Sequence record: NC_048205.1
Strand: one strand, 5' to 3'
Length of the DNA stretch: 64,000 bases
From: Escherichia phage vB_Eco_mar004NP2
Translations under genes and position numbers: made by a program
The notes under the pieces: model-generated
The model's input: only the letters and a program-made list of their open reading frames with translations
What the model was told of the DNA's origin: nothing
Database searches by the model: none
In this document: piece by piece, positions 241 through 43,005 of the stretch
How positions within the stretch are numbered: the stretch's first letter is position 1
Layout: every line of letters begins with the position of its first letter

Positions 241-319
241 GGGGGATGGGTCTGCTAGGGGTGGACACCTCGCTTGCACCGAGGACATCAGAACGATTCG
301 AATTCGTTATCCTCCACCA
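241..319 (+). tRNA. tRNA, probable Ala (anticodon UGC)
   Basis: 7-bp acceptor stem GGGGGAT/ATCCTCC, anticodon stem-loop CCTCG-CTTGCAC-CGAGG, T-arm AACGA-TTCGAAT-TCGTT, encoded CCA; hand-folded. Confidence 0.5.
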
Positions 320-324
320 AATAC

Positions 325-401
325 GCGTGATTGATGGAATTGGCATACATACCGTCCTTAGAAGTCGGGTTTTGAGGGTTCGAATCCCTTGTCACGCACC
401 A
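325..401 (+). tRNA. tRNA, anticodon uncertain (best fold gives UAG); non-canonical D-arm
   Basis: acceptor GCGTGAT/GTCACGC, T-arm GAGGG-TTCGAAT-CCCTT, CCA end; anticodon stem has one mismatch. Confidence 0.4.
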
Positions 402-526
402 AATTTGATGGTCAGAGTAAATTAAACCTACTATCTCGGTTGAGCTGTTTTAATGGGTTCGAATCCCAGCGAGGCGTAACTGCCTGGTGTGATAGAGGCA
501 TCATTCCACTAACATTGGAAAAACTA

Positions 527-757
527 ATGAAACGAAAATTAAAAAAGTCTTATATAATTAAGATAAATAAGCTACGAAGTAGGGCAAAAGGATGGCCACT
601 TCGAATATTAATTGCGGATAACCATACTAGATACCATGCGGAACAACGTCATTACAAACAGTGGGAGTCATACTGCCGCTCAAAAGCAGGTCGTTTAGAT
701 GGATCTTATGAGTTTCTATTTGGTAAGAAGCCTACTAGAGTAGCTTTAGGTAATTAA
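527..757 (+). CDS. hypothetical small basic protein (76 aa)
   Basis: ATG after GGAAAAACTA; the longer track ORF 389..757 would overlap the tRNA at 325-401. Confidence 0.3.
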   Translation: MKRKLKKSYIIKINKLRSRAKGWPLRILIADNHTRYHAEQRHYKQWESYCRSKAGRLDGSYEFLFGKKPTRVALGN

Positions 758-762
758 TACTT

Positions 763-853
763 GGAAGAGCAAATCGAATTGGCGACGAAAACCGCTTGGA
801 AAGTGGCTGACTGGTAAAACGGCTTGAGAGTTCAAATCTCTCCTCTTCCGCCA
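763..853 (+). tRNA. type II tRNA, probable Ser (anticodon GGA)
   Basis: perfect acceptor GGAAGAG/CTCTTCC, anticodon loop TTGGAAA, long variable arm, T-arm GAGAG-TTCAAAT-CTCTC, CCA. Confidence 0.5.
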
Positions 854-865
854 AACAATTTATAT

Positions 866-960
866 GGTAGGTCAATCCAACGGCTGGCGCTGGACTCCGA
901 CTTGAAATCGGTTGATCGTAGTGATACGGTGTAAGGGTTCGATCCCCTTACCTACCTCCA
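866..960 (+). tRNA. type II tRNA, probable Ser (anticodon UGA)
   Basis: acceptor GGTAGGT/ACCTACC, anticodon stem-loop CCGA-CTTGAAA-TCGG, long variable arm, T-arm AAGGG-TTCGATC-CCCTT, CCA. Confidence 0.5.
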
Positions 961-1011
961 AATCTTGGAATATGCCGGAATTGGTAGACGGGACTGCCGA
1001 ATAGGTTTACT

Positions 1012-1096
1012 AGGAACATCCACTCCTAGAAATATACCTTAAAAGCGGTTGAGTTAAATGGTCTAACTCATGAAGGTTCAAGCCCTTCTATTCCTT
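1012..1096 (+). ncRNA. tRNA-like element (canonical T-arm, variable-arm hairpin; anticodon arm not resolved)
   Basis: T-arm GAAGG-TTCAAGC-CCTTC at 1072-1088 preceded by hairpin GAGTTA-AATGGTC-TAACTC; acceptor pairing imperfect. Confidence 0.25.
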
Positions 1097-1325
1097 GATA
1101 CATCAATGGCTCAAAGTGTAACGGTGCTATTTGATGCTCTTGGAAAGACTTTCCCGACATGCGTTCGGGGGTAAGCTTCTGAGGCTAGAATAGAAGAGTT
1201 TCTGAGAGCCGCCACAATTGAAAATTCGTACTCGTCTTGAGCTGCGTGCAATAGGAGATAACTTGATTAGTATTCTAGAACATGCTAATTGAGGATGGTT
1301 TCGCTAACCCTGCGAGTTTTCAATT

Positions 1326-1402
1326 GTGGCTATATCATAATTGGTTAATGATCCTGATTGTGAATCAGGCCTATGTGGATTCGAATTCCACTAGCCACCC
1401 CC
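1326..1402 (+). tRNA. tRNA, probable His (anticodon GUG)
   Basis: acceptor GTGGCTA/TAGCCAC, D-loop AATTGG, anticodon stem-loop CCTGA-TTGTGAA-TCAGG, T-arm GTGGA-TTCGAAT-TCCAC. Confidence 0.5.
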
Positions 1403-1428
1403 AAATTAACTTAAATAGGAAATAAAAT

Positions 1429-1623
1429 ATGGCTGATTTCTGCAAACAATGCTCCATTGATATGTGGGGCAGAGATACTGGTGATCTTTCTGGGCTGATT
1501 ACAGAAGCCGAAGTCAAAGAAGGTTATGGTGCAGTTGTGGTTTGTGAAGGATGCGGAGTCATTCGAGTAGATCATGAGGGTAAGCGCCTTGAAGAACCTG
1601 AGCCAGTTACCCTATTTCCCTAA
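1429..1623 (+). CDS. small zinc-ribbon protein (CxxC...CxxC), 64 aa
   Basis: ATG preceded by AATAGGAAATAAAAT; two CxxC pairs (CKQC, CEGC). Confidence 0.5.
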   Translation: MADFCKQCSIDMWGRDTGDLSGLITEAEVKEGYGAVVVCEGCGVIRVDHEGKRLEEPEPVTLFP

Positions 1624-1636
1624 AGTAAAGAATTAT

Positions 1637-1712
1637 TGGGATGTAGATCAATTGGCAGATCGTCGGCCTCTGACTCCGAAGGTTCCACGTTCGATCCGTG
1701 GCATCCCAGCCA
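1637..1712 (+). tRNA. tRNA, probable Gln (anticodon CUG)
   Basis: acceptor TGGGATG/CATCCCA, D-stem GATC/GATC, anticodon loop CTCTGAC, T-arm CCACG-TTCGATC-CGTGG, CCA. Confidence 0.5.
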
Positions 1713-1718
1713 AATACT

Positions 1719-1794
1719 TGGAGAGTAGTGTAACGGTTAGCACAACGGCCTTTGACTCCGTTAATGGTAGGTTCGATTCCTCCTTCTCCAGCCA
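1719..1794 (+). tRNA. tRNA, probable Gln (anticodon UUG)
   Basis: acceptor TGGAGAG/TTCTCCA, D-stem GTGT/GCAC, anticodon loop CTTTGAC, TTCGATT T-loop, CCA. Confidence 0.5.
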
Positions 1795-1801
1795 AATTAA
1801 T

Positions 1802-1876
1802 GCGTGATTAGTTCAGTGGCTAGAATAACTGGCTTCCAACCAGTAGACACGAGTTCGACTCTCGTATCCCGCACCA
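1802..1876 (+). tRNA. tRNA, probable Gly (anticodon UCC)
   Basis: anticodon stem-loop ACTGG-CTTCCAA-CCAGT, T-arm ACGAG-TTCGACT-CTCGT, CCA; one U-C mismatch in acceptor stem. Confidence 0.45.
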
Positions 1877-1890
1877 AATAAGGAAACACT

Positions 1891-2142
1891 ATGCACGTTT
1901 TTGAGTTTCGTAATAAAAGTACTGATAAGCGAGTTATCATTATTGGAGAAACATATCGAGCATATGAACAAACTGATGGCTCTGTTATCTTGAATGATGA
2001 GAAAGGAGGTTTTAGCTTTTATCCAGAAGAACCTTATGAAGAGTTTCGAAAACAATTTAACCTAGACTGGAGAAAGCATTTAAACACTGTTGCTTCATCT
2101 GTAGTATTGCCAACTACCAGTACTGTACTCTCTAATGGCTGA
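1891..2142 (+). CDS. hypothetical protein, 83 aa
   Basis: ORF with AAGGAAAC RBS directly after the tRNA. Confidence 0.5.
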   Translation: MHVFEFRNKSTDKRVIIIGETYRAYEQTDGSVILNDEKGGFSFYPEEPYEEFRKQFNLDWRKHLNTVASSVVLPTTSTVLSNG

Positions 2143-2298
2143 CAACCTAAAAGTAAAGATTGATAAACAAAAGAAACGTGTAGAAGTAGAGATTGGTGAA
2201 GAACGTGTTGGCTTTACTTTTGAATTTCTACAGCAAATGGCAATGGCAGTTATGACTGATAAGTCTCCTGTTATTGAAAAAGAAATCCCGTTGAAATA
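2136..2298 (+). CDS. hypothetical small protein, 54 aa (not in ORF track)
   Basis: ATG overlapping upstream stop; followed by hairpin CCCGTTGAAATAACGGG. Confidence 0.3.
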
Positions 2299-2309
2299 AC
2301 GGGATCATC

Positions 2310-2384
2310 GCTCCTAAAGCATTGCTGGCGATGCAGTTGCCTTGTAAGCATCTGAACCGGGTTCGATTCCTGGTGGGAGCACCA
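2310..2384 (+). tRNA. tRNA, probable Thr (anticodon UGU)
   Basis: acceptor GCTCCTA/TGGGAGC, D-stem GCAT/ATGC, anticodon loop CTTGTAA, T-arm TTCGATT, CCA. Confidence 0.5.
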
Positions 2385-2399
2385 AATTTAAAAATTCAT

Positions 2400-2428
2400 T
2401 TGCCTTCTCTCTTATTTATTGTTATAAT
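2400..2428 (+). promoter_or_regulatory. sigma70 early promoter (-35 TTGCCT, 17 bp, -10 TATAAT) with conserved leader TATAAATTAATGAGAGG
   Basis: consensus hexamers and spacing; leader shared with other promoters in window. Confidence 0.6.
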
Positions 2429-2458
2429 ATTTATATAAATTAATGAGAGGGAAACCAA

Positions 2459-2749
2459 ATGAAACGTTATCTTTCTATTGTATTCCAAACTGGTGGTCAA
2501 AGATATACCTATGAATTTCCATCTTCTTGGAAAATCAAAGAAGGTGATCAAGTAGTAGTGTTAACACCGCGTGAAGGGTATAAAGTAGTAATGGTTAAAC
2601 AAGTATTCCCAAAAGATCATGAACCAGCTAAAGGCATTCGCTATAAGATGATTCATGGTGTGGTCCGTCAAGTACCACGAACTGAGGTAGAAGTAGATAA
2701 GACTGGAGAAACTAAATTCCATTATACTTCTTACTTAGATAGTGTGTGA
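2459..2749 (+). CDS. hypothetical protein, 96 aa
   Basis: ATG 8 nt after GAGAGGG in promoter leader. Confidence 0.6.
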   Translation: MKRYLSIVFQTGGQRYTYEFPSSWKIKEGDQVVVLTPREGYKVVMVKQVFPKDHEPAKGIRYKMIHGVVRQVPRTEVEVDKTGETKFHYTSYLDSV

Positions 2750-2764
2750 TGTAAATATTCTAAT

Positions 2765-2841
2765 ACTTCGGTAGCTTAGCGATCTAAAGCACCCGGCTGA
2801 TAACCGAGAGATCGGGGGTTTAAATCCCTCCCGGAGTACCA
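2765..2841 (+). tRNA. tRNA, probable Ile (anticodon GAU)
   Basis: acceptor ACTTCGG/CCGGAGT, D-stem GCTT/AAGC, anticodon loop CTGATAA, T-loop TTTAAAT, CCA. Confidence 0.45.
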
Positions 2842-2936
2842 AATTTAGGAATTAAGACTATGCGTCCAGGAAAGTTTAAAAAAGCTAATTGGTCTAAAGA
2901 GTATAAAGAATACTTACTTAGTCTAGTAAAACATAA

Positions 2937-3013
2937 CAGTTAGTTGGCAGAGTGGTTATGCACCTCCTTCATACGGAGCGACTACAGTGGTTCAAATCCA
3001 CTACTAACTACCA
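2937..3013 (+). tRNA. tRNA with CAU anticodon (Met or Ile2)
   Basis: perfect acceptor AGTTAGT/ACTAACT, anticodon loop TTCATAC, T-arm AGTGG-TTCAAAT-CCACT, CCA. Confidence 0.5.
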
Positions 3014-3050: not shown

Positions 3051-3245
3051 ATGTTAACAATTAAAATAATGTCAGCCAAGAATGGTGAACATATCCATAC
3101 AGGCAAAAGCGTAAGCTTTAATCCTAGAAATAAGAGATTGGCTATAGTTGGAGTAGATCAAGCCATCTTTTTAAAAGAAGATGAAGTAGCATACGTCATG
3201 AACCAAACTGGTAAGACAGTTTCCGTATACTATGGAAAAGTATAA
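3051..3245 (+). CDS. hypothetical protein, 64 aa
   Basis: ATG after TAGGAGCAGCT RBS. Confidence 0.5.
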   Translation: MLTIKIMSAKNGEHIHTGKSVSFNPRNKRLAIVGVDQAIFLKEDEVAYVMNQTGKTVSVYYGKV

Positions 3246-3287
3246 AGAATAAAGAGCTGAGCCAAATTCTAGCATCGTGGAGATCTA

Positions 3288-3656
3288 ATGAAAGCATATC
3301 AAAATCTTAAGTCTGGCGTAATTAATCTTGTTCATGATAATCAGATTATTCAACTGTACTCTAAAAATGGCGAACTTAAACAAAAAGTTCTGGTTGAGGA
3401 TCTAGAGGGTATTACACCCCATTTTGACCCCGAGTCCTTTCGTGAAGTCAAGGTGGAAGTCGCCCCTCAAATTGAAGGTGGTCAGCACCTAAATGTCAAT
3501 GTGTTAAGTCGTGATCAGCTTTTGGATGCACAGAAACATCCTGAAAAATACCCTCAATTAACTATCCGTGTTTCAGGGTACGCTGTGCGTTTTAACGCAC
3601 TGACGCGTGAACAGCAGAACGACGTTATTAGTCGTACATTTACTCAGGCGATGTAA
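3288..3656 (+). CDS. autonomous glycyl-radical cofactor (GrcA/YfiD-like spare-part protein)
   Basis: C-terminal [31 protein letters not shown] matches the glycyl-radical signature RVSGYAV of pyruvate formate-lyase C-terminus and GrcA. Confidence 0.6.
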
Positions 3657-3737
3657 TGGGGCTTGGATACGGTTTCTACGAACTACGTAAGGTAGTCGAG
3701 CAAACTCCATTTATCTCCCAAGTTTTAGGAGAAATGT

Positions 3738-4052
3738 GTGGATCGAGCATTAAGACGTCATCACCGGCAACGTGTAAAGAACAACCGCAAGAAGTATTGG
3801 ACAGTCTTCCCACATGAAGAAAGCCCTAAACGGTTAGGTATTATCACTACTACTCCTTGTATCTGTTCTTGTTGGATGTGCGGGAATCCTCGCAAATACT
3901 TTAAGAATAGTAAAGCAGGGATGAAAACCTCGGAGATTAGGAAAATGGAAGCAATGATTACGGATATTTCAAATGATGAATTTGATGGCTTTGTAGGATT
4001 CGGAGAAGGAATTAGCTCAGGCTGTTTCGAAGATGTACGCCCCGATTTGTAA
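3738..4052 (+). CDS. hypothetical Cys-rich basic protein, 104 aa (GTG start)
   Basis: GTG start 6 nt after TAGGAGAAAT; followed by terminator. Confidence 0.45.
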   Translation: MDRALRRHHRQRVKNNRKKYWTVFPHEESPKRLGIITTTPCICSCWMCGNPRKYFKNSKAGMKTSEIRKMEAMITDISNDEFDGFVGFGEGISSGCFEDVRPDL

Positions 4053-4061
4053 TTAATAACA

Positions 4062-4097
4062 AACCCCAGCTATTGAATAGGTAGTCTGGGGTTTTTC
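4062..4097 (+). terminator. rho-independent terminator
   Basis: hairpin AACCCCAG...CTGGGGTT followed by TTTTT. Confidence 0.6.
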
Positions 4098-4173
4098 TGT
4101 ATACAGGTAGATAATTTATGTATAATAAAATTCATCCACATTAGGTTAATTTAAAAAACTTAATGGAGGTAAT

Positions 4174-4521
4174 ATGAGCCGTACTTATCGTAAACAATCT
4201 GGTGATCAGTGGTGGAAGTCTAAAGAACAATTCTCTCAAGAATATTCTTTCATCAAAGAAAATGGCTACTGGATTCGTGTTATTTATGCCAAATCTTGGG
4301 ACGACATCAAAAAAGAAATGAAGGAAGCAACCATTCGTAATGAGAAAAAGGATGGTTATAACTGGAATTCTGTTAGTAAGAATGTTAAGTGGCATTCTAA
4401 TAAAATGGTTCGTCAAGGGAATCGTCAAGAACTCCACCGCGTGATGAAAGATCCAGAAAATTACGACTATAATCGCGATCATGACATGCGTAAGCGTGGA
4501 TTATGGTGGTGCTACGACTAA
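4174..4521 (+). CDS. hypothetical protein, 115 aa
   Basis: ATG after GGAGGTAAT RBS. Confidence 0.55.
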   Translation: MSRTYRKQSGDQWWKSKEQFSQEYSFIKENGYWIRVIYAKSWDDIKKEMKEATIRNEKKDGYNWNSVSKNVKWHSNKMVRQGNRQELHRVMKDPENYDYNRDHDMRKRGLWWCYD

Positions 4522-28023: not shown

Positions 28024-29688
28024 ATGATTATTTCCGCAGAAAAACAAACCGTTATCCTGAAAATGGCCGCTGACTTTAATTTCTATGGTAAACGTCTGCG
28101 CGCTACTAAACTGGAGGTCTGCGACGATATATCAAAAGCGGTCTACGATACAACAAAACACTCGACCGCTATCTGCGACTGGTTGGAAGCAAATAAACCA
28201 GCTAAACCGAAAGCGGCGAAAGTAGCAAAAGCCATTAAAAACGATGAGCGTCCAGAAGCGGCGGGGATTGTTTCTAGCACGGTTGAGCAATGGGAAGTAA
28301 AGCAGGGTAAACGCTTTATTATTACGTCGATTCAGAATAATACTTTCCCGCATAAAAACTTTTTAGCCTCATTGGAGCAATTTGCTAAATATATCGGCGC
28401 TGATTTGCTGGTTAGCAAGTTTATTTATAACAAAAACGGTTTTCAAAATGGCGAGGGTGCAGAAGGAATAAAATATGATTCCGCATTTGACAAATATATC
28501 TGCAATAAAAACGTGTTTTTAAATAACCGCCGTTTTGCTTTCATGGCTGAAATTAACGTTTTGCCAACCGCAGATTATCCGCTTTCTGGATTCGCTGAAA
28601 CTGCAACGGCGCTTAATCTGGAAGGTCTGGCAATTGGTCACGCTAAAATTACCGCTGAAAGCGTGCCAGCTTTAAAAGGTGAAGTAGTGCGCCGTATGTA
28701 CTCAACCGGAACGGCAACGCTCAAAAACTACATTCAGCAGAAAGCAGGACAAAAGGCCGAGGCGCTGCATAACTTCGGTGCGCTAATTGTCGAGTTCGAC
28801 GAGGACGGGGAATTTTTTGTACGCCAGCTCGAAACGATGGACGAAAGCGGGGTATTTTATGATCTGAATGTGTGCGCTACTCCTGCCGGATGCTATGAGA
28901 CATCGGGGCATGTTTTAGGCTTGCAATACGGCGATATTCACGCAGAAAAACTAGATGATGATTGTGCCGTTGCGTCATGGGCTGGCGAAAATAGCTTGCT
29001 TGATATTCTCAAGCCTAAATATCAGTTTATCCATGACGTGCATGATTTTACATCACGCAACCATCACAACCGCGCATCCGGTGTATTCCTAGCAAAACAA
29101 TACGCCGCCGGACGTGATAAGGTATTAGATGATCTTATCGATACGGGGCGCGTGCTGGAATCAATGGAACGTGATTTCTCGCAAACAATCATTGTTGAAT
29201 CTAATCACGATTTGGCGCTATCCCGTTGGCTTGATGATCGTAATGCTAACATTAAAGACGATCCAGCAAACGCGGAACTATATCACCGCCTAAATGCCGC
29301 GATTTATGGAGCTATTGCAGAAAAAGACGATACTTTCAACGTGCTAGATTATGCGCTGCGCAAGGTTGCAGGTTGTGAGTTTAACGCCATTTTTCTAACT
29401 ACTGACCAATCTTTCAAGATTGCAGGCATTGAATGCGGCGTACACGGTCACAACGGCATTAACGGCAGCCGTGGCAATCCTAAACAATTTAAGAAATTGG
29501 GCAAATTAAACACCGGACACACTCACACCGCCAGCATTTATGGCGGCGTGTATACCGCTGGCGTAGCTGGTAGTCTGGACATGGGTTACAACGTTGGCGC
29601 GTCAAGCTGGACGCAAACGCATTTAATTACCTATGCAAACGGTCAGCGCACTTTGATTGACTTTAAAAACGGTAAATTCTTTGCGTAA
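28024..29688 (+). CDS. A1: A1-like pre-early protein (554 aa, metallophosphoesterase-type motifs)
   Basis: size close to T5 A1; motifs GDIHAEK, HDFTSRNHH, ESNHD, GHTHT; TIR ATGGAGTTTTATTA. Confidence 0.55.
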   Translation: MIISAEKQTVILKMAADFNFYGKRLRATKLEVCDDISKAVYDTTKHSTAICDWLEANKPAKPKAAKVAKAIKNDERPEAAGIVSSTVEQWEVKQGKRFIITSIQNNTFPHKNFLASLEQFAKYIGADLLVSKFIYNKNGFQNGEGAEGIKYDSAFDKYICNKNVFLNNRRFAFMAEINVLPTADYPLSGFAETATALNLEGLAIGHAKITAESVPALKGEVVRRMYSTGTATLKNYIQQKAGQKAEALHNFGALIVEFDEDGEFFVRQLETMDESGVFYDLNVCATPAGCYETSGHVLGLQYGDIHAEKLDDDCAVASWAGENSLLDILKPKYQFIHDVHDFTSRNHHNRASGVFLAKQYAAGRDKVLDDLIDTGRVLESMERDFSQTIIVESNHDLALSRWLDDRNANIKDDPANAELYHRLNAAIYGAIAEKDDTFNVLDYALRKVAGCEFNAIFLTTDQSFKIAGIECGVHGHNGINGSRGNPKQFKKLGKLNTGHTHTASIYGGVYTAGVAGSLDMGYNVGASSWTQTHLITYANGQRTLIDFKNGKFFA

Positions 29689-29744
29689 ATAATTAATCCC
29701 CTAGCGGCTTGAAATATAGCCGCTATTACAGGAGCTAAATTAGA

Positions 29745-30002
29745 ATGAAAGTTACATTACCCAAAACGCTAGACGAAAAAGCATTTATTTCACCGGATGA
29801 AATGGAATCCGATAAAGTTTACAGCTTCGGGCCTATTCTAGCCGCCAAAACTAATACTGATGGGATTATTACGGTCGATTATCGTGATAATGATATTGTA
29901 CCCTTTGACGATGATGGTGCTTTTTATGAGTGGCTAAGCGATAATAATTTACCCGTAAACGGTGAATTAACGCCGTACCAGATGCAGATTATTATCAAAT
30001 AA
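29745..30002 (+). CDS. pre-early acidic protein, 85 aa
   Basis: ORF with CAGGAGCTAAATTAGA RBS. Confidence 0.5.
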   Translation: MKVTLPKTLDEKAFISPDEMESDKVYSFGPILAAKTNTDGIITVDYRDNDIVPFDDDGAFYEWLSDNNLPVNGELTPYQMQIIIK

Positions 30003-30040
30003 ATTAAATCCATTATTAAACTAATTGGAGTTTTATAAAC

Positions 30041-30433
30041 ATGAAAAAGCAAAATATTCCATTTGACCGCGCTCAATCCTCAATTGTTCTGGTTTATTCT
30101 AATGGTGAGCGTTACCACGTCGAGGCGGGGCACGTTATTGATGAATTGCTAGATTTCAATGACGCTTTGCAGGTTACAACATTTGCATATATGCAAGGCA
30201 AACTAACTAGCCATATTAAAGCAAAAGGCGTTTATGTTGACACGGTGAAACAAGAAACGATTATCATCGACGCAGTAAAATCCGGTCTAACCTTTGCAGT
30301 TGTCGCGCCTTGCCCCGCTTGCCTTGATGATCAATTGATTTCTGCAAAAGTATATACTTGTGCGGGGATTCGTTCCCATGTATCAGGTGAGGATGTTAGT
30401 TTTATCGCCGATGCGTTGGCTTATGGTCTTTAA
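30041..30433 (+). CDS. pre-early hypothetical protein, 130 aa
   Basis: TIR TTGGAGTTTTATAAAC-ATG. Confidence 0.5.
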   Translation: MKKQNIPFDRAQSSIVLVYSNGERYHVEAGHVIDELLDFNDALQVTTFAYMQGKLTSHIKAKGVYVDTVKQETIIIDAVKSGLTFAVVAPCPACLDDQLISAKVYTCAGIRSHVSGEDVSFIADALAYGL

Positions 30434-30512
30434 TAGTTAATTTATTATTACCCGCTTATAAATAGCGGGTAATGCTGAATTAATCTAATCCCTTAAATGG
30501 AGAACGTAACAA

Positions 30513-31247
30513 ATGAATAAAGCTATCATGAATCTTTCCCGCAGCTTCCCGCATATTTCCCGCGTCATGATTTGGGATTTAGACGGCACTATCATTAATT
30601 CTTTCCATCGTGTAGCACCCTGCTTTGATAGCGAGGGCAATTTAGATTTAAATAAGTATAAAAATGAAGCGTGTAAACACCATTTAATAATGCAAGATAC
30701 TTTATTGCCATTGGTTGAATATATGCGCCAGTGCATGAATGACGCAAATACTTTAAACATTATTTGCACCGCTCGACTGATGAGTAAGTCGGACTATTAT
30801 TTCTTGCGTAAACAAGGGTTGCGCGGTCGTGGTAATAGTAATATCCGCGTATTTTCCCGCGATACACTACACAAATATTTTAAAGCTGATAAGGTTAGCG
30901 AAATATACCACAGCAAAGACGCAGTATATAAATCTTATTATTTTGAATTATTTAAACAGTTATATCCTAACGCTGATTTTACAATGATTGATGATCATAA
31001 AGGCGTGCTATCAGCGGCAGCGTCATACGGATTTAAAACGCTGGACGCACAAGCCGTTAATGATATTCTATCAATCGGCGTGGCATTGATAGGTGAAACC
31101 TTTATTGATGAATCTCTCGACGATGATAATGATTATCAATTCCTAGCTGACCGTTTAAAATTATGCTGGGAAGGTATGACCGAGGAAGAACGCGCAGAAT
31201 ATAGTTGCAGTCCTCAACAATATATTGAGAAATTAAAAGTTGCCTAA
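30513..31247 (+). CDS. dmp: 5'-deoxyribonucleotidase (HAD-like), Dmp-like
   Basis: 244 aa as in T5 Dmp; HAD motif I in VMIWDLDGTIIN; last gene of the island. Confidence 0.55.
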   Translation: MNKAIMNLSRSFPHISRVMIWDLDGTIINSFHRVAPCFDSEGNLDLNKYKNEACKHHLIMQDTLLPLVEYMRQCMNDANTLNIICTARLMSKSDYYFLRKQGLRGRGNSNIRVFSRDTLHKYFKADKVSEIYHSKDAVYKSYYFELFKQLYPNADFTMIDDHKGVLSAAASYGFKTLDAQAVNDILSIGVALIGETFIDESLDDDNDYQFLADRLKLCWEGMTEEERAEYSCSPQQYIEKLKVA

Positions 31248-31399
31248 CAATTAAAGTTGAAATAGTCACGGTGTGTAATGATACCATGCCGTGACTATTA
31301 GCCTGCTAAGTACCGGGCGGTAATGAGACTCATTCTCATCTGGGGGGCCACTGGACACACCCACGCGTACGTAATCCAAAGAAATTGGCAAAAGTCAAA

Positions 31400-31645
31400 T
31401 TAGCGCATAGAAGGGTCATCAAACCTGTATTCTGGTCTGAACTCACGGAATCTCTTCCGCGACGCCCGAGATCCATCCGACCACTCCCGCTCAAACTCCG
31501 CACGTTTCTCGTCAAACTTCCGCTCCCTTTCCGCAATCTCCCGCGTCACTCCCGCAATATATTTACGATGCTTATTGATTGCCGCAGTCGTCCCGAAAAC
31601 TCCCGTGAGTATCCCGATAATAAAAGCAATTACAATACTAAACAT
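31400..31645 (-). CDS. small TM protein with highly charged tail, 81 aa
   Basis: ORF track; N-terminal TM helix. Confidence 0.4.
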   Translation of the reverse strand: MFSIVIAFIIGILTGVFGTTAAINKHRKYIAGVTREIAERERKFDEKRAEFEREWSDGSRASRKRFREFRPEYRFDDPSMR

Positions 31646-31832
31646 CTAATTCCCTCTCAATTTGCAGAATACGGGTACTATCACAGCGTTGAAGCTCTAC
31701 TAATTTTTCTAGTGCAAATTGTTGCTGCTTTACCTGGGCCTCTAGAGTTTTTAGGCGAACATACGCGGTATAAGAAACAATGAAAATTGCCCAGATTAAT
31801 ATTACTATTAATGTAGCTGCCACTTCCATCAT
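31638..31832 (-). CDS. small TM + coiled-coil protein, 64 aa
   Basis: ORF track; ATGATGG overlap. Confidence 0.4.
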   Translation of the reverse strand: MMEVAATLIVILIWAIFIVSYTAYVRLKTLEAQVKQQQFALEKLVELQRCDSTRILQIERELDV

Positions 31833-31936
31833 TTACGTTTCTCCAGCAATAAAGTTTCAATTCTAGCTAAGTGATTATCTAAAATACATTGCCCAATAAT
31901 CACAATCCCTAATAGTGCAATAATTACCCATTCCAT
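31829..31936 (-). CDS. micro membrane protein, 35 aa (not in ORF track)
   Basis: MEWVIIALLGIVIIGQCILDNHLARIETLLLEKRK; coupled TAATGG/ATGATGG junctions. Confidence 0.3.
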   Translation of the reverse strand: MEWVIIALLGIVIIGQCILDNHLARIETLLLEKRK

Positions 31937-32064
31937 TAAATCCACCCCGCCATAGCTGCTAACCAAAAACCTACGAAAATAAAGAATAGGAGAGTTCCGA
32001 ACCCAAAACTATTTATCCAACTCTCATACACCTCTCCGCGTCTATTATTTCTTTTGTTTGACAT
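31936..32064 (-). CDS. micro membrane protein, 42 aa (not in ORF track)
   Basis: GGGAG RBS; MSNKRNNRRGEVYESWINSFGFGTLLFFIFVGFWLAAMAGWI. Confidence 0.3.
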   Translation of the reverse strand: MSNKRNNRRGEVYESWINSFGFGTLLFFIFVGFWLAAMAGWI

Positions 32065-32231
32065 ATCTTTCGTGCTCCCATAAATGTGATATTTTAAAAT
32101 ATGTGCATAACCAACCGTGCTTGTGGACTCCTAGAAGGACTTCTACTTTTCTTACATAGTGGTTTCTGCCAATATACCATCCAAGAAATAAAAAATTTAG
32201 TTTACTTGGATGTCTTTTTGTTTTATACTAA

Positions 32232-32498
32232 TTACAGGTAATTAGATTGCTCTAGTTTAAATTTACAATCACCATATTTAAGGTCAAACTGACTGAGATC
32301 CCACCACCCAAATTTAGTACGGAGCTGTACTACTGGAAAGCGATCTCCCTTAATACGAACTTTTTGAACCTTGAGACCGTAATATTCTTCTCCCGCACCA
32401 CCAAAAGATTTTACAAATCCCGTACAAAATGGTTTGGGAGCAGGTACACAACCAGATAATATAACTGTGGCAACTAGTGCAATTACAAACTTTTTCAT
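32232..32498 (-). CDS. llp: Llp-like lipoprotein (receptor-blocking superinfection-exclusion type)
   Basis: signal peptide with lipobox LSGC; small size; adjacent and antisense to the receptor-binding protein gene as in T5. Confidence 0.5.
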   Translation of the reverse strand: MKKFVIALVATVILSGCVPAPKPFCTGFVKSFGGAGEEYYGLKVQKVRIKGDRFPVVQLRTKFGWWDLSQFDLKYGDCKFKLEQSNYL

Positions 32499-32583
32499 AT
32501 TTATCTCTCCATTTCTAATTTATGAATTTATTATAGCAAAATAGAGGGATGAAAGCAAATACATTTTTATAATAGGAGATTAT

Positions 32584-34341
32584 ATGGGTTTTTTCGCTGG
32601 AAAGTATAGCGATGGTAAGACCGTACTATCTTTAAATACTGAATCTGGGGGTGACATTAATCGTCACTATAGTCCAAGTAATAATAGTATTTTTCATAGT
32701 GATATGCCATTTGTTCTAGTTGAGGGTACTTATGAGGCAGGATTAGGTGATGCCGGGAATGGGTTTTTCGTATGTCAGATGCCTCCTGATATAGTAAATA
32801 TTAAATCTAATGATCCTGGTAGAGTTATACTAACTGCTATTGAGATTAATGGTACTCACAGAGCTTTTCTTAATGGTACTCAGAGTAAAGTTGGTCAAAC
32901 TATAGTTGCCACTCAAGCAGACCCCTTTAGATCTTTTGCTAGTGTTTCTCAAACCAGTGGATTTGCATTTGGTAATAGTCTAGCATCTGGAACTTATAAT
33001 TATAACCCATCGATAGGGCACGAAGAATCTATCTCTAGGAGTGGTACAGGTGGTACTACGTTACATAGTACCTACCATGGGATAGTTAGGCCTGGTGCGG
33101 GAGCTCCTGTAGGTGTTACTGTTGCAGAAGCCTTTGCACAATTAGGTTTTCCTACTAATAGTAGCACAGTACCTGTAGATGGGAATAACCCGTACTATTG
33201 GGATCCTGGATGGATGTCGCCTCTAGGAGCAGCACATAGAGGGCATGATTGGTTTTATGTTTGCAACTCTAATATACGTGGATACGGTGGGGTTAGACAA
33301 GGGCTCCCAGGTAATGTAAATACTATGTACCACGACGGTGGGAACAGATTTGTTTGTAGGGGATCTACTACTAATTTAGCTAACCAGTCGGGTGACTCTA
33401 CAATACTACAGGATTGGTATAATATAACCCCTACTAAGGTTATTTGGTATGTTCTTAATTTAAGGTACTCTAATGGTGGAATGAGTATTTCAGGCAACCC
33501 CTTTACTGGTTCTGATATTCTTATATCTCCTTCTAATTTCATAATTAAAGGGGTAAGTCTCCCTAATACCGGGTATAAATTTATAAATCAGAATGCTTTT
33601 GGTAACCTAGGTTACCGTCCTGATATGGAGTATATAGGAAATAACGCAGCGTATACCGGGGTTTTTGGGGATACCACGGCAAGGTGTGAACTTGTAGGGT
33701 CTAGTAATGGAGGATTATGGTCTCCTGTAGACTATGGTGGAGCTAAATCCCAAATTAGCATTTACAAATTCGGAGCTGGTAAGCAATGGTATGTAAACTC
33801 TAGGGATAATACTATCGGTAATGAACACGGGGTTGTTTGGGGACCATCAGCAGTTCCATTACGACTTTTTGGTGGAAATGTAGGTAGCTCTTACATGGGG
33901 GATGATATTACTCCCAGCTACCCGGGAACAGGGGATAGATACGTTGGTTTATCAACTATTGGGCTAGGTATACCGGGTGGCAATGCTACAGTAATTCTTA
34001 CCACTGAAGTTATATCAGGTAACCTTAACTGTGCAGGTGTTCCTGCTAATACATGGAATAACGGTGTGTTTCAAGTGCAAGGAAGAAGAGCATATAGCTA
34101 TAGTAATGGAGATGCAATATTCCACCAGATTTTAACATTACCAGTAGGGTATTTAGTACCTTTTCATACTACATCTGCTTTTAGGTACACACCTAACAAT
34201 GCCCTAAGTAGAAATAGTTTTATATATACTGCTAAAAATCTGGGGAATGGAAATGTAGAGTTAGGGGTAGTTATGCACGTAAGTTTAGGTAGTGCAGTTT
34301 TCCTACCGAGATTAAGAGTAACAGTTCAACGCCTTACCTAA
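32584..34341 (+). CDS. receptor-binding tail protein (pb5-like), 585 aa
   Basis: position between llp and terminase as in T5; Gly/Asn/Ser-rich. Confidence 0.5.
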
Positions 34342-34351
34342 AGGAGGAAAT

Positions 34352-34834
34352 ATGGCAAATGATGTATTAGTACCAGATCTTATGTCCCCTGAAGGGATGG
34401 ATGTAATTGAAGCATATTTACAGTGTGGCAGCGATGTGCCTTCTGCCGCACGTAGTCTTGGGATGTCCGAAATTGCTTTTCGAGATATTATGAATCGTAG
34501 TGAAGTTAAGAACTACTTAAATGATATTTTTATGGAGAGTGGTTTCCGTAACAGAGATCGTTTATTTGGTGTTCTGGATGAAGTTATCAAGCGTAAACTA
34601 GAGGAACTAGAAGAAACTGGCATGGGTTCTGACCAAGATATTATGGATATTCTCTGGAAAGCACATAAAATGAAAATGGAAGAAATGAAAATGATGGTAG
34701 AACTGGAGAAAGTGAAGGCAGCAGCCCGTACTCCAGCTAACCAGACCAACATCCAGAATAATATTATTGCTGGAGCTGGGGATCAAAACTACATGGACTT
34801 AATTACTTCCCTAGCTACTGGAGGTAAGAAGTAA
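34352..34834 (+). CDS. terS: terminase small subunit (putative)
   Basis: 160 aa, immediately upstream of and coupled to terminase large subunit. Confidence 0.45.
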
Positions 34835-36150
34835 TGGAAGTATCAAGACCTTACGTTAATACAGTAGATGTTATTGATTTCGGAATAGATAAACGTTTCT
34901 TTCGTCTACCTGTTTCGGGAATACTAGCACAAGAAGGTATTACACCTAATGGTCCTCAAATAGCGATTATTAATGCTCTAGAGGATCCTAGACATCGTTT
35001 TGTAACGGCGTGTGTATCACGCCGTGTAGGTAAATCCTTCATCGCATATACTCTTGGGTTCCTAAAATTGCTGGAACCTAATGTGAAGGTGTTAGTAGTT
35101 GCTCCTAACTATTCACTGGCCAACATCGGATGGTCTCAGATTCGTGGTCTTATTAAAAAATATGGCCTACAAACTGAACGTGAGAACGCTAAAGATAAGG
35201 AAATTGAGTTAGCTAATGGTTCTCTGTTTAAACTAGCTTCCGCTGCTCAGGCTGACTCCGCGGTTGGACGTTCATATGATTTTATCATCTTTGACGAGGC
35301 GGCAATTTCCGATGTGGGTGGTGATGCCTTCAGGGTTCAGCTGCGTCCTACTCTAGATAAACCTAATTCTAAGGCTCTATTTATTTCCACACCTCGTGGA
35401 GGTAACTGGTTTAAAGAGTTTTACGCCTACGGATTTGATGATACGTTGCCTAACTGGGTATCTATTCATGGTACATATCGTGATAACCCTCGTGCTGACC
35501 TGAATGATATAGAAGAAGCACGTCGTACGGTTAGTAAAAACTACTTCCGCCAGGAATATGAAGCTGACTTCTCTGTATTTGAAGGTCAGATTTTTGATAC
35601 TTTCAATGCTATTGACCATGTTAAAGACCTTAAGGGTATGCGTCATTTCTTTAAAGATGATGAAGCATTCGAAACGTTGCTTGGTATCGACGTTGGTTAT
35701 CGTGATCCTACAGCAGTTCTTACTATTAAGTATCATTACGATACGGATACTTACTATGTATTAGAAGAGTATCAGCAGGCGGAGAAAACTACAGCTCAGC
35801 ATGCTGCTTACATTCAGCACTGTATAGATCGTTATAAAGTTGATCGTATTTTTGTTGACTCCGCGGCAGCTCAGTTCCGTCAAGACTTAGCTTATGAGCA
35901 TGAAATTGCATCAGCTCCAGCTAAAAAATCTGTCCTAGATGGCCTAGCATGCCTGCAAGCACTGTTCCAACAGGGTAAGATTATTGTAGATGCCTCATGC
36001 TCCTCCTTAATTCATGCACTGCAGAACTATAAGTGGGACTTCCAAGAAGGTGAAGAGAAATTATCACGTGAAAAACCACGTCATGATGCTAATTCTCACC
36101 TTTGTGATGCGCTGCGCTATGGAATTTACTCTATTTCCCGTGGTAAATAA
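34834..36150 (+). CDS. terL: terminase large subunit
   Basis: Walker A-like VSRRVGKS, Walker B IIFDEAA, C-terminal nuclease region; 438 aa. Confidence 0.8.
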   Translation: MEVSRPYVNTVDVIDFGIDKRFFRLPVSGILAQEGITPNGPQIAIINALEDPRHRFVTACVSRRVGKSFIAYTLGFLKLLEPNVKVLVVAPNYSLANIGWSQIRGLIKKYGLQTERENAKDKEIELANGSLFKLASAAQADSAVGRSYDFIIFDEAAISDVGGDAFRVQLRPTLDKPNSKALFISTPRGGNWFKEFYAYGFDDTLPNWVSIHGTYRDNPRADLNDIEEARRTVSKNYFRQEYEADFSVFEGQIFDTFNAIDHVKDLKGMRHFFKDDEAFETLLGIDVGYRDPTAVLTIKYHYDTDTYYVLEEYQQAEKTTAQHAAYIQHCIDRYKVDRIFVDSAAAQFRQDLAYEHEIASAPAKKSVLDGLACLQALFQQGKIIVDASCSSLIHALQNYKWDFQEGEEKLSREKPRHDANSHLCDALRYGIYSISRGK

Positions 36151-36321
36151 ATAAGTATAGGATGGGATACTACTCAGTTGGTATCCCATTCCTGCATTTT
36201 AAAATCCCCTTTACAAATTCGATACGATTATGTATACTATATTCATTGATCGGGAGAACTTCTCCCATAATAGAACGTAAACAAGAAAAATTAATGCTCT
36301 ACATGGGGTGTAGGAGATTCT

Positions 36322-36995
36322 ATGGGTCGACAAAAGCTAACAATAAAAGATATAAATATTAGATTAGCTGATCGTGGAATCCAAATTGTCGGTGAGTATG
36401 TAAACCAACGTACAAAAACAGTATTTAAATGCCAGAGAGCACATGTTTGGGAAGCAACACACATTCTATACTCCATATGGGGAGAGGTTGTCCACACTGC
36501 TCCAATAATACAATATCGTTAGATGAAGTTAATAACAGAATATCTAATATAGGGTATACTCTGTTAAGCAGCTATACTAATGCTAAAACAAAACTACATC
36601 TACGCTGCAATAAGGGGCATGACTGTTTACTTACCTTAGATGGATTGACTCAAGGTAAGAGATGTCCTTATTGTTCTCTTAAGTGGGAGAATGGCGGATT
36701 CCTCTATATCATGTCCTCCTCTAGTGGTACTAAAGTAGGCATAAGCTTATACCCTGAGAAACGGCTGAATGAAGTTAAAAGAGAATCTGGATTTTCTGAC
36801 CTATACTTGTTCACCATGTATCATCTGCCAGATAGAGAGACTGCTTTAGATTTAGAAAAGGAAGTTCACAGAGAATATTATAATAAAAACTGTGGGTTTT
36901 CTAATTTTACAGGAAGCACGGAATTTTTTAATGTTGCTCCTGAGGATATAGTAATCTTTCTAAGTAGCTTTGGATTGGAGGATTATGGCCACTAA
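36322..36995 (+). pseudogene. homing-endonuclease-like gene split by a -1 frameshift at TGGGG (36478-36482)
   Basis: frame-1 ORF 36322..36522 and frame-3 ORF 36429..36995 join into a tandem repeat K..KC...H....T......G..CP.C only if ribosome slips -1 at the G-run. Confidence 0.45.
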
Positions 36996-37422
36996 TACTA
37001 AGTACAAACGTGATGCCATTTCCATAATGAGGGATGGTATAAAATCTAGGTATAGTAAGGATGGTTGCTGTGCTATATGTGGTAGTAGTGAAGACCTAGA
37101 ACTTCACCATTATCATACTATATCTCAGCTAATAAAAAAATTTGCTAAAGAACTCCAGCTGGATTTCACTGATGAGAATATCGTCCTTTCAAATAGGGAA
37201 GCATTCTACAAGAAATATGAGCATGAGTTAGTTAGGGACGTGGTAACATTGTGCCAGCACCATCACCAATTATTACATAAGGTTTACACAAAAGAACCTC
37301 CTTTATTTTCTGCTAATAAGCAAAAAGCGTGGGTTCAAAAGCAGAAAGACAAATTACAGAATCCTCAAGAAAAGACACAAGTCAAGACTGAAACAAAATC
37401 AGGATTCGCAAGGTTCTTATAA
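36970..37422 (+). CDS. HNH endonuclease
   Basis: CAICGSSEDLELHHYH ... LCQHHHQLLH motif; between terminase and portal. Confidence 0.6.
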   Translation: MDWRIMATNTKYKRDAISIMRDGIKSRYSKDGCCAICGSSEDLELHHYHTISQLIKKFAKELQLDFTDENIVLSNREAFYKKYEHELVRDVVTLCQHHHQLLHKVYTKEPPLFSANKQKAWVQKQKDKLQNPQEKTQVKTETKSGFARFL

Positions 37423-38633
37423 TGGGTTTAAAAAGCTGGATTACTGAAAAGTTAAATCCGGGTCAACGTATTATAAGAGACATGGAACCAGTTAGTCATC
37501 GCACTAACCGTAAGCCTTTTACCACTGGACAAGCCTACAGTAAAATTGAGATTCTCAATAGAACTGCTAATATGGTTATAGATAGTGCGGCGGAGTGTTC
37601 TTATACTGTCGGAGATAAATATAATATTGTTACGTACGCTAATGGCGTCAAAACAAAGACTCTAGACACTCTCTTAAATGTACGACCTAATCCATTCATG
37701 GATATAAGCACATTCCGTAGACTTGTAGTCACTGACCTACTTTTTGAAGGTTGTGCATACATCTATTGGGATGGCACATCGCTTTACCATGTCCCGGCTG
37801 CTCTTATGCAGGTCGAGGCAGATGCCAATAAGTTTATCAAAAAGTTTATATTTAATAATCAGATAGACTATCGCGTAGATGAGATTATCTTTATAAAGGA
37901 TAACAGTTACGTGTGTGGCACAAATTCTCAAATTTCTGGACAATCTCGTGTTGCTACTGTTATTGATTCTCTTGAAAAGCGTTCTAAGATGCTTAACTTT
38001 AAAGAGAAATTCCTAGATAACGGAACCGTGATTGGTCTTATTCTTGAGACGGATGAAATCCTGAACAAGAAATTGCGTGAGCGTAAACAAGAAGAATTAC
38101 AACTCGATTATAATCCTAGTACTGGTCAGTCTTCTGTCCTGATTCTAGATGGTGGTATGAAAGCTAAACCGTACTCCCAAATATCCTCTTTTAAAGATCT
38201 AGACTTTAAGGAAGACATTGAAGGATTTAATAAATCTATCTGTCTAGCCTTTGGTGTTCCGCAAGTGTTGCTTGATGGGGGTAATAATGCGAACATTCGA
38301 CCAAACATCGAACTGTTCTATTATATGACTATCATTCCTATGCTGAACAAACTGACTAGTTCTCTTACTTTCTTTTTTGGTTATAAGATCACTCCGAATA
38401 CTAAGGAAGTCGCAGCATTAACACCAGATAAAGAAGCAGAGGCTAAACATTTAACCTCATTGGTTAATAATGGTATTATAACCGGTAACGAAGCTCGTTC
38501 AGAGCTGAACCTTGAACCTTTAGATGATGAGCAGATGAATAAGATCCGTATTCCTGCTAACGTCGCTGGTTCTGCAACAGGTGTATCTGGTCAAGAAGGT
38601 GGTAGACCCAAGAGTTCCACCGAGGGAGATTAA
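37422..38633 (+). CDS. portal protein
   Basis: 403 aa, position after terminase, ATGA coupling; size matches T5 portal. Confidence 0.65.
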   Translation: MGLKSWITEKLNPGQRIIRDMEPVSHRTNRKPFTTGQAYSKIEILNRTANMVIDSAAECSYTVGDKYNIVTYANGVKTKTLDTLLNVRPNPFMDISTFRRLVVTDLLFEGCAYIYWDGTSLYHVPAALMQVEADANKFIKKFIFNNQIDYRVDEIIFIKDNSYVCGTNSQISGQSRVATVIDSLEKRSKMLNFKEKFLDNGTVIGLILETDEILNKKLRERKQEELQLDYNPSTGQSSVLILDGGMKAKPYSQISSFKDLDFKEDIEGFNKSICLAFGVPQVLLDGGNNANIRPNIELFYYMTIIPMLNKLTSSLTFFFGYKITPNTKEVAALTPDKEAEAKHLTSLVNNGIITGNEARSELNLEPLDDEQMNKIRIPANVAGSATGVSGQEGGRPKSSTEGD

Positions 38634-38635
38634 GA

Positions 38636-39121
38636 ATGATTGATTATAGTGGTCTGAGGACCATTTTTGGTGAAAAACTGCCAGAATCTCATATCTTCTT
38701 TGCTACGGTTGCTGCGCATAAATATGTTCCTAGCTATGCTTTTCTGCGTAGAGAACTAGGGCTTTCATCTGCGCATACTAATCGTAAAGTATGGAAGAAA
38801 TTTGTAGAGGCTTATGGTAAAGCAATTCCTCCGGCTCCACCATTAACTCTTTCTAAAGATTTAACTGCGAGCATGTCAGTTGAAGAGGGAGCAGCATTAA
38901 CACTTTCTGTTACTGCAACTGGGGGTACTGGTCCATATACTTATGCATGGACTAAAGATGGTTCTCCTATTCCTGGTGCTTCAGGAGCTACCTATACTAA
39001 GCCTACAGCAGCAGCTGAGGATGCCGGCTCTTATAAAGTAACTGTAACAGATAGTAAGCAAGTAAGTAAGGATTCTACTGCATGTGCTGTAACAGTTAAT
39101 CCTACTGTTCCTGGAGGCTAA
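38636..39121 (+). CDS. capsid decoration protein with Ig-like domain (pb10-like)
   Basis: C-terminal Ig-like segment LTLSVTATGGTGPYTYAWTKDGSPIPGA...YKVTVTD. Confidence 0.5.
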   Translation: MIDYSGLRTIFGEKLPESHIFFATVAAHKYVPSYAFLRRELGLSSAHTNRKVWKKFVEAYGKAIPPAPPLTLSKDLTASMSVEEGAALTLSVTATGGTGPYTYAWTKDGSPIPGASGATYTKPTAAAEDAGSYKVTVTDSKQVSKDSTACAVTVNPTVPGG

Positions 39122-39124
39122 TAA

Positions 39125-39757
39125 ATGACACAAGCTGCTATTGACTATAACAAGTTAAAATCAGCACCGGTTCATTTAGATGCTTATATTAAATCTATTG
39201 ATAGCGAATCCAAAGAGGGTGTTGTAAAAATACGTGGATTCGCTAATACAATTAGTAAAGATCGCGCTGGTGATGTAATTCCTGCTTCTGCATGGAAAAC
39301 ATCTAATGCACTTACTAACTACATGAAAAACCCGATTATTCTTTTCGGACACGATCATCGTCGTCCAATCGGTAAGTGTATTGATCTTAACCCCACTGAA
39401 ATGGGTCTCGAAATCGAATGCGAGATCTATGAAAGTTCTGACCCGGCTATCTTTTCACTAATTAAAAACGGTGTACTGAAAACTTTTAGTATCGGATTCC
39501 GCTGCCTAGATGCAGAGTGGGATGAAGCTACTGATATATTTATTATTAAAGATTTAGAACTATACGAAGTTTCGGTAGTTTCTGTACCTTGTAATCAGGA
39601 CTCAACATTCAATCTCGCTAAGAGCATGAATGGTCATGATTATACTGAATGGCGTAAATCTTTTACTGCAATAAGTTCTAAAGCTGTCCCAGCTCAAGAA
39701 CGTAATCTTTCTGAACTAGAAAAACTTGCGATAGCTTTAGGCTACGTTAAAGAATAA
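39125..39757 (+). CDS. prohead protease
   Basis: 210 aa between portal/decoration and major capsid genes. Confidence 0.55.
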   Translation: MTQAAIDYNKLKSAPVHLDAYIKSIDSESKEGVVKIRGFANTISKDRAGDVIPASAWKTSNALTNYMKNPIILFGHDHRRPIGKCIDLNPTEMGLEIECEIYESSDPAIFSLIKNGVLKTFSIGFRCLDAEWDEATDIFIIKDLELYEVSVVSVPCNQDSTFNLAKSMNGHDYTEWRKSFTAISSKAVPAQERNLSELEKLAIALGYVKE

Positions 39758-39774
39758 CGGAGAATTATTTAAAA

Positions 39775-41151: not shown

Positions 41152-41172
41152 TACAGGCTTTTCAGCCGATAA

Positions 41173-41200
41173 GGAGAGCTTCGGCTCTCCTTTTTTATTG
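41173..41200 (+). terminator. rho-independent terminator after capsid gene
   Basis: hairpin GGAGAGC-TTCG-GCTCTCC plus TTTTTT. Confidence 0.7.
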
Positions 41201-41210
41201 GGAAAAATAA

Positions 41211-42490: not shown

Positions 42491-42493
42491 TAA

Positions 42494-42979: not shown

Positions 42980-43005
42980 GTTACAGATTAGGAGAAAATA
43001 ATTAA

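Follow-up and report, generated by a model that had tools for sequence, protein, structure and literature searches.

A GrcA-like glycyl-radical protein encoded beside the tRNA genes of a T5-like phage, a probable spare part for host pyruvate formate-lyase-type enzymes

Introduction

At positions 3288–3656 of the DNA of Escherichia phage vB_Eco_mar004NP2 (NC_048205.1) lies a small ORF that an earlier note had read as encoding a GrcA-like glycyl-radical protein, supporting host glycyl-radical enzymes during infection. The locus raises the question of what such a protein would do for a virulent phage: whether it is a working part, which enzyme it would serve, where its radical would come from, and how long the phage lineage has kept it. 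We addressed these questions in the window, by which we mean the whole 64,000-nt stretch analysed, and by comparison with related phage and bacterial genomes.

Two elements of the answer are already known. The identity of the gene is, since it is annotated as GrcA or autonomous glycyl radical cofactor in public phage records, and so is the concept of a phage spare part, shown in 2001 for the T4 counterpart. In the account of that work given in PMC8683613 (Wagner et al. 2001, as cited there), both YfiD, the GrcA of Escherichia coli, and Y06I of phage T4 are activated by the activase of pyruvate formate-lyase (PFL) and restore the activity of oxygen-cleaved PFL. In searching the literature we came upon no paper dealing with the T5-family protein; for GrcA in combination with phage the search gave host-side papers only. 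What we add here is that the T5-like lineage is old and independent, that the tail following the radical glycine resembles that of TdcE, that the gene is nearly universal in its clade, and that the N-terminal half is linked to that of GrcA by transitive homology.

The gene and its product

The ORF (Table 1) runs from ATG to TAA with 122 codons before the stop, exactly where the earlier note had placed it. It is the orthologue of T5.056 of phage T5 (NC_005859), which has the same length and position and a translation identical to that of the window protein at 119 of the 122 residues. The start codon is confirmed by the N-terminal sequence MKAYQ, which is common to the homologues of T4-like and other phages. 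The product (13,958 Da, ~14 kDa) has no cysteine at all, and therefore no catalytic capacity of its own. It is a stand-alone protein: its neighbours are separate ORFs and tRNA genes, and it comes without the barrel of the glycyl-radical enzymes (GREs) and without their catalytic cysteines.

Table 1. Coordinates of the GrcA-like gene, its parts and neighbouring features in the window
Feature	Position	Strand	Remarks
tRNA-Ala	241–319		called by ARAGORN, missed by Rfam
tRNA-Leu	325–401		
tRNA-His	1326–1401		
Sigma-70-type promoter-like site	2400–2428	+	TTGCCT-17-TATAAT with TG; consensus scan, 10/12 match
T5.058 homologue	2459–2749		
64-aa ORF	3051–3245	+	phrog_3909; no Pfam match
Shine-Dalgarno GGAG	3279–3282	+	5 nt before the ATG of the GrcA-like gene; read from the sequence
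GrcA-like gene	3288–3656	+	T5.056 orthologue; from ORF list
N-terminal half, residues 1–60	3288–3467	+	putative divergent counterpart of YfiD N-terminal region
Glycyl-radical domain, residues 61–122	3468–3653	+	corresponds to PflB 698–759; Pfam PF01228, PDB alignments 6OWR and 1H16
Glycine-radical signature TIRVSGYAV, residues 92–100	3561–3587	+	single regular-expression match
Gly97 codon, predicted radical site	3576–3578	+	alignment register with PflB Gly734 and YfiD Gly102
53-aa ORF	3656–3817	+	phrog_31464; CDS in PMBT29 annotation; overlaps start of T5.055 homologue
Spacer	3657–3737		last 48 nt, 3690–3737
T5.055 homologue	3738–4052	+	104 aa; phrog_4499; GTG start; AGGAG ribosome-binding site
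Rho-independent terminator	4061–4096	+	hairpin and U-run; RNA fold –18.3 kcal/mol, z –4.77; putative unit end

The glycyl-radical domain

The C-terminal half of the protein carries the domain that the earlier note had suspected, and a profile search of the kind it proposed was positive: Pfam PF01228 (Gly_radical) matched residues 62–103 at E 3.8e-18, its 66.4 bits exceeding the cut-off of 22.2. The top match in a sequence search of the PDB was 6OWR, the NMR entry of YfiD/GrcA (E 1.6e-30). The same search aligned residues 61–122 of the query with residues 698–759 of E. coli PFL (1H16, E 5e-27), so that Gly97 falls on the radical site Gly734. The motif RVSGYAVRF, on which the earlier reading had rested, is indeed present, at residues 94–102, and its glycine stands in an identical context in the alignments with PflB and YfiD. 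The match to the radical loop is thus real and well outside what chance would give, although the 30 C-terminal residues first allotted to it fall short of its extent, which is 62. The signature within this region was found with the expression [STIV]-x-R-[IVT]-[CSA]-G-Y-x-[GACV], which we take to be PROSITE pattern PS00850. In an alignment of 36 phage and bacterial homologues, bacterial GrcA included, all 41 invariant columns lay in the C-terminal half; they included EGG-HLN-NVL, an uninterrupted run of 16 residues and the whole 12-residue radical loop, and Gly97 was invariant (36 of 36).

Among the NCBIfam models those for GrcA, GrcA3 and GrcA2 ranked best, followed by PFL. All three GrcA scores remained under the respective equivalog cut-offs, which are curated score thresholds and not biological properties: 121.5 bits against 170 for TIGR04365, the GrcA model of the autonomous glycyl radical cofactors (IPR011140), with only residues 50–122 aligned, 116.5 against 158 for GrcA3, and 90.8 against 145 for GrcA2. 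The formate C-acetyltransferase model TIGR01255 gave 85.9 bits against a cut-off of 994.2, and only over the last 62 positions of the profile. The phrog_1209 profile, on the other hand, was matched over its full length, residues 1–122 on positions 1–121 of 121 (E 4.7e-48). On these profile comparisons we file the window protein as a phage GrcA-like protein of the phrog_1209 (Y06I/T5.056) group, not as an NCBI-equivalog GrcA, and judge it not to be a formate acetyltransferase.

Public records name this gene in many ways: GrcA, autonomous glycyl radical cofactor, pyruvate formate-lyase, 2-ketobutyrate formate-lyase, acetyltransferase-like, ribonucleotide reductase subunit, and hypothetical. T5.056 itself is annotated as a 'putative acetyltransferase-related protein', from a match to the glycine-radical InterPro domain IPR001150. 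For a Cys-free protein of 122 aa the labels pyruvate formate-lyase, 2-ketobutyrate formate-lyase, acetyltransferase and ribonucleotide reductase subunit are wrong. The practical value of the present analysis lies mostly here, in annotation, the public labels being inconsistent and many of them wrong.

Structure prediction agreed with the family assignment. The AF2 model had moderate confidence (mean pLDDT 70) and ordered its elements as N-terminal strands, a low-confidence linker (residues 59–72, pLDDT below 50), a helix, the hairpin with the glycine and, at the C-terminus, another helix. Foldseek against the PDB returned 6OWR first (E 5.8e-6, TM 0.73 per target), then 2PFL, 1CM5 and 1MZO. A control model of an enterobacterial-type GrcA gave an identical order of predicted elements, and the N-terminal strands are therefore no peculiarity of the phage protein; a structured N-terminal domain was accordingly rejected as a distinguishing trait. 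By NMR YfiD's N-terminal half is disordered, unlike the AF2 picture (PMC8683613).

Relationship to GrcA, Y06I and PFL

E. coli GrcA was the best PDB match to the window protein both by structure and by sequence, and resembles it in being a stand-alone protein of ~14 kDa with an identical radical loop (Gly97 corresponding to Gly102), 55 of 74 positions identical over residues 51–122 of the window protein, and the same order of predicted secondary structure. It differs in length (127 aa, five residues longer) and in setting, since grcA occupies the chromosomal grcA-ung locus and the window gene sits beside tRNA genes in a virulent phage. It also differs in the N-terminal 50 residues, for which direct comparison detected no similarity. 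T4 Y06I, encoded by vs.6 and an experimentally validated phage spare part, shares the MKAYQ N-terminus, membership in phrog_1209 and 53% identity over the full length, although its genomic neighbourhood is unlike that of the T5-like gene. PflB and TdcE share the strand, helix, Gly loop and C-terminal helix of their C-terminal domain with the window protein; their barrel of ~700 residues and the catalytic Cys418/Cys419 are both absent from it.

The N-terminal half, which is variable and differs strongly from that of bacterial GrcA, could be connected with it in two steps. By hhalign, the N-terminal halves of T5-like phages matched those of other phages (85.6% probability, E 5.5e-6), and the latter matched those of bacterial GrcA (95.8% probability, E 7.8e-9). 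The direct hhalign comparison of T5-like with bacterial GrcA N-terminal halves was not significant, and the link between them is one of transitive homology only. We accordingly regard the whole window protein, as judged by sequence, as a GrcA homologue that has diverged, and this would account for its score below the equivalog cut-off of the GrcA model. In YfiD, the N-terminal 60 residues are required, together with PFL residues 696–733, for complex formation and efficient activation (PMC8683613). As the N-terminal half of the window protein is not directly recognisable as that of GrcA, its binding and activation behaviour could differ.

Distribution, selection and origin

The window is from a T5-like phage; over the 1.4 kb that surrounds the gene, Salmonella phages EH4 and PMBT29 and Escherichia phage Baret show 100% identity to it, and many Tequintavirus records ~95%. 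A tblastn search found a homologue in 1,582 phage records: ~434 of them, at 80% identity or more, come from T5-like phages of E. coli and Salmonella, and more than 1,000, at ~50–60% identity, for the most part from T4-like phages, in which the gene bears the name vs.6, with some jumbo phages. The dNMP kinase gene of the window gave 432 records at 80% identity or more, a number so close to ~434 that the GrcA-like gene must be essentially universal in the T5-like clade.

Every one of the 31 T5-like copies, that of the window and those of 30 related loci, had an intact full-length ORF; they comprised 29 distinct nucleotide sequences and 18 distinct proteins. Selection was measured on 18 T5-like sequences, those of the window and of 17 related loci, by the pooled Nei-Gojobori method. 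With dS at ~0.4, dN/dS was 0.07 for the whole gene, 0.11 for codons 1–60 and 0.02 for codons 61–122; that is, both halves are under purifying selection, and the radical domain most strongly. Together with its near-universality in E. coli and Salmonella T5-like phages, this strong purifying selection suggests that these phages regularly infect cells where oxygen is low or fluctuates.

The gene did not come recently from the host. Matches of the pflB/grcA/tdcE type were present in all 5,426 of the 5,426 complete E. coli genomes, with similarity to the host genes in the 3' half only. Over the radical domain the T5-like gene has 70–73% nucleotide identity to grcA, to pflB and to T4-like vs.6 alike; where the residues are identical, their codons differ in about half of the cases, and synonymous sites are saturated. 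Because of this combination of nucleotide identity and saturation, recent host capture was rejected and the T5-like copy is taken, on its sequence divergence, to be an old, separately maintained lineage.

The vs.6 gene of the T4-like phage ime09 agrees with E. coli K-12 grcA over its last 62 codons at 179 of 186 nt (96%) and 60 of 62 aa, and its N-terminal half is of the phage type (positions 4001–4363 of our locus L004 compared with K-12 grcA at 8067–8450 of L042), which suggests a recent exchange or recombination of the C-terminal half with host grcA. The protein cluster P0108, of 900 member sequences, has an enterobacterial GrcA N-terminal part with a PflB-type C-terminal tail, SLTKEQQQDVITRTFTQSM; gene conversion between pflB and grcA might account for this make-up, or else a chimera made in assembly.

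Proposed function and alternative readings

We consider it likely that the window protein is a phage GrcA/YfiD, that is, a spare part for oxygen-cleaved host enzymes of the PFL type that receives its radical from host PflA; the comparative evidence above supports such an interpretation of the gene. In the mechanism that we propose, active, radical-bearing host PflB (and probably also its paralogue TdcE) would meet oxygen and be cleaved at the radical glycine. The phage protein would dock on the cleaved enzyme through its N-terminal half and a strand, PflA would put a new radical on Gly97, and the hybrid complex would again turn pyruvate and CoA into acetyl-CoA and formate. T5 is described in a preprint (bioRxiv 10.64898/2026.04.02.716235) as rapidly degrading host DNA. 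With its DNA destroyed early by a phage of the T5 type, an infected cell would be unable to make new PflB or GrcA, and a phage copy expressed early would sustain the flow of carbon and energy through fermentation when infection takes place under microaerobic conditions or fluctuating oxygen. On this reading the gene illustrates cleanly how a phage can bring along a repair part for an enzyme of host metabolism. The earlier note's placing of this role in the gut is plausible as ecology, and goes beyond what can be read from the DNA.

The activase would have to be that of the host, whose pflA adjoins pflB in E. coli. No radical-SAM-sized protein with a CxxxCxxC motif was present among all ORFs of at least 80 aa in the six frames of the window, and host PflA is therefore needed for activation in our scheme; nor was an activase annotated in the stretches 14.0–34.0 kb and 38–62 kb of T5. 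The sole CxxxCxxC match among those ORFs was in the 104-aa T5.055 homologue, which was rejected as a phage-encoded activase, being too small for a radical-SAM protein and lacking a Pfam match.

A variant with the same mechanism would make the protein a spare part mainly for TdcE (2-ketobutyrate/pyruvate formate-lyase 4), or for another PFL-type enzyme, rather than for PflB. Over the last 62 residues the window protein is closest to E. coli TdcE (51 identities, against 49 for PflB and 48 for GrcA), and the likeness is strongest in the 25 residues that follow the glycine, the very piece lost on oxygen cleavage (TdcE 23, PflB 20, GrcA 18). These differences are small, however, and the order reverses in the 36 residues before the glycine (GrcA 29, PflB 28, TdcE 27). 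PflB and TdcE are moreover close paralogues, both of which one spare part would probably fit, and PflB is the abundant enzyme, which also counts against a part meant mainly for TdcE. We regard PflB and TdcE both as plausible clients, the differences in identity being so small, and a part dedicated mainly to TdcE or another such enzyme as unlikely. An ancient phage-maintained lineage with a TdcE-like tail and a diverged N-terminal half might also serve a different client (TdcE or another PFL-type enzyme), or be activatable without prior oxygen damage, which we think quite improbable. Free YfiD is a poor activase substrate (PMC8683613). Were the phage protein activatable without oxygen damage, it would be a phage-controlled switch on host fermentation and not simply a repair part.

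The divergence of the N-terminal half from bacterial GrcA also leaves room for altered binding, and hence for a decoy or inhibitor that soaks up PflA, or occupies damaged or undamaged PFL, and so shuts down or redirects pyruvate fermentation. Nothing in our data favours this directly. The radical glycine and the full activase-recognition loop are invariant, and the strong constraint on their domain is as expected for a working radical site; the T4 homologue, for its part, restores activity in vitro in the account of PMC8683613. We hold an inhibitory role to be very improbable beside the spare part that we prefer.

T5 has a class III ribonucleotide reductase, NrdD, which carries a Gly_radical domain of its own and whose gene, T5.099 in T5, has its counterpart outside this window; repair of the phage's own NrdD, encoded elsewhere in the genome, was therefore weighed as well. 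Some records do name the gene 'ribonucleotide reductase subunit', and for T4 vs.6 a role in nucleotide metabolism was put forward, as speculation, in 2006 (PMC1524935). BLASTP, however, found no similarity between the window protein and T5 NrdD (E 5.1), whose tail is of a different type, a Cys4 (Zn) ribbon followed by TRRVCGYLGNP; the identity to PflB and TdcE over the last 62 residues, by contrast, is 49–51. We rejected the NrdD spare part on these grounds and give it hardly any credence. Lowest of all we place a non-functional captured fragment of host pflB or grcA, a reading that the restriction of host similarity to the 3' half might invite and that the selection analysis refutes: both halves are under purifying selection, the intact copies show abundant synonymous change with very few replacements, the saturated synonymous sites argue against recent capture, and the gene is near-universal in its clade.

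Transcription unit and neighbouring genes

The gene lies in the tRNA-bearing early region, as the earlier note had it: nine tRNA genes occupy 241–3013, and the last of them, tRNA-Met, ends 275 nt upstream of the GrcA-like gene. The promoter-like site upstream is the probable equivalent of T5 promoter P11 and the putative start of the unit that holds the gene; T5 annotates P11 directly upstream of T5.058, whose homologue follows the site in the window. At the other end, the terminator is nearly identical to one annotated in T5 downstream of T5.055. Its long loop hid it from our terminator scan; the T5 annotation, together with folding of the RNA, brought it to light. The unit would thus run, in order, from the promoter through the T5.058 homologue, tRNA-Ile, tRNA-Met, the 64-aa ORF, the GrcA-like gene and the T5.055 homologue to the terminator, and from the T5 annotation and the consensus scans the GrcA-like gene is probably an early gene that shares with tRNA-Ile and tRNA-Met a transcript beginning at the P11-like promoter and reaching about position 4096.

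The 64-aa ORF separates the GrcA-like gene from tRNA-Met. T5.056 adjoins tRNA-Met in the T5 reference at a distance of only 13 nt, and the region of this ORF is therefore an indel of ~260 bp among T5-like genomes.

Directly downstream of the GrcA-like gene, and probably co-transcribed with it, is the T5.055 homologue. Its product begins with a strongly basic N-terminus, contains a cluster of Cys residues that does not vary, PCICSCWMCGNPRK, and is clearly under purifying selection, with dN/dS of 0.13 outside its overlap with the 53-aa ORF and 0.02 inside. In that overlap the frame of the 53-aa ORF has dN/dS of 3.6 against the 0.02 of the other frame, and upstream of the overlap it shows no frame-specific signal; judged by these substitution patterns, the 53-aa ORF probably does not represent a gene.

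From the stop codon of the GrcA-like gene to the T5.055 homologue, the spacer varies much less than the synonymous sites of the flanking genes, with ~0.04–0.08 differences per site in every frame against ~0.32. Its last 48 nt are nearly invariant in an alignment of 11 phages, in which the window and six others are identical and four have one to six changes each, and a hairpin (UCUCC...GGAGA) covers the downstream ribosome-binding site. A conserved RNA element in this spacer was rejected, as the fold was no better than that of shuffled sequences (z –0.59) and there was no covariation.

Between tRNA-Leu and tRNA-His of the window neither ARAGORN nor Rfam found a tRNA; in T5 and T5_ev219 the corresponding interval holds two tRNA-Ser genes, to which T5 adds several 'stable RNAs'. 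At 28024–44415, the window passes from the early tRNA region and genes of the pre-early type directly to the terminase (34834–36150), portal (37422–38633) and capsid (39775–41151) genes, and the source assembly appears to be circularly permuted, with its terminal repeat collapsed.
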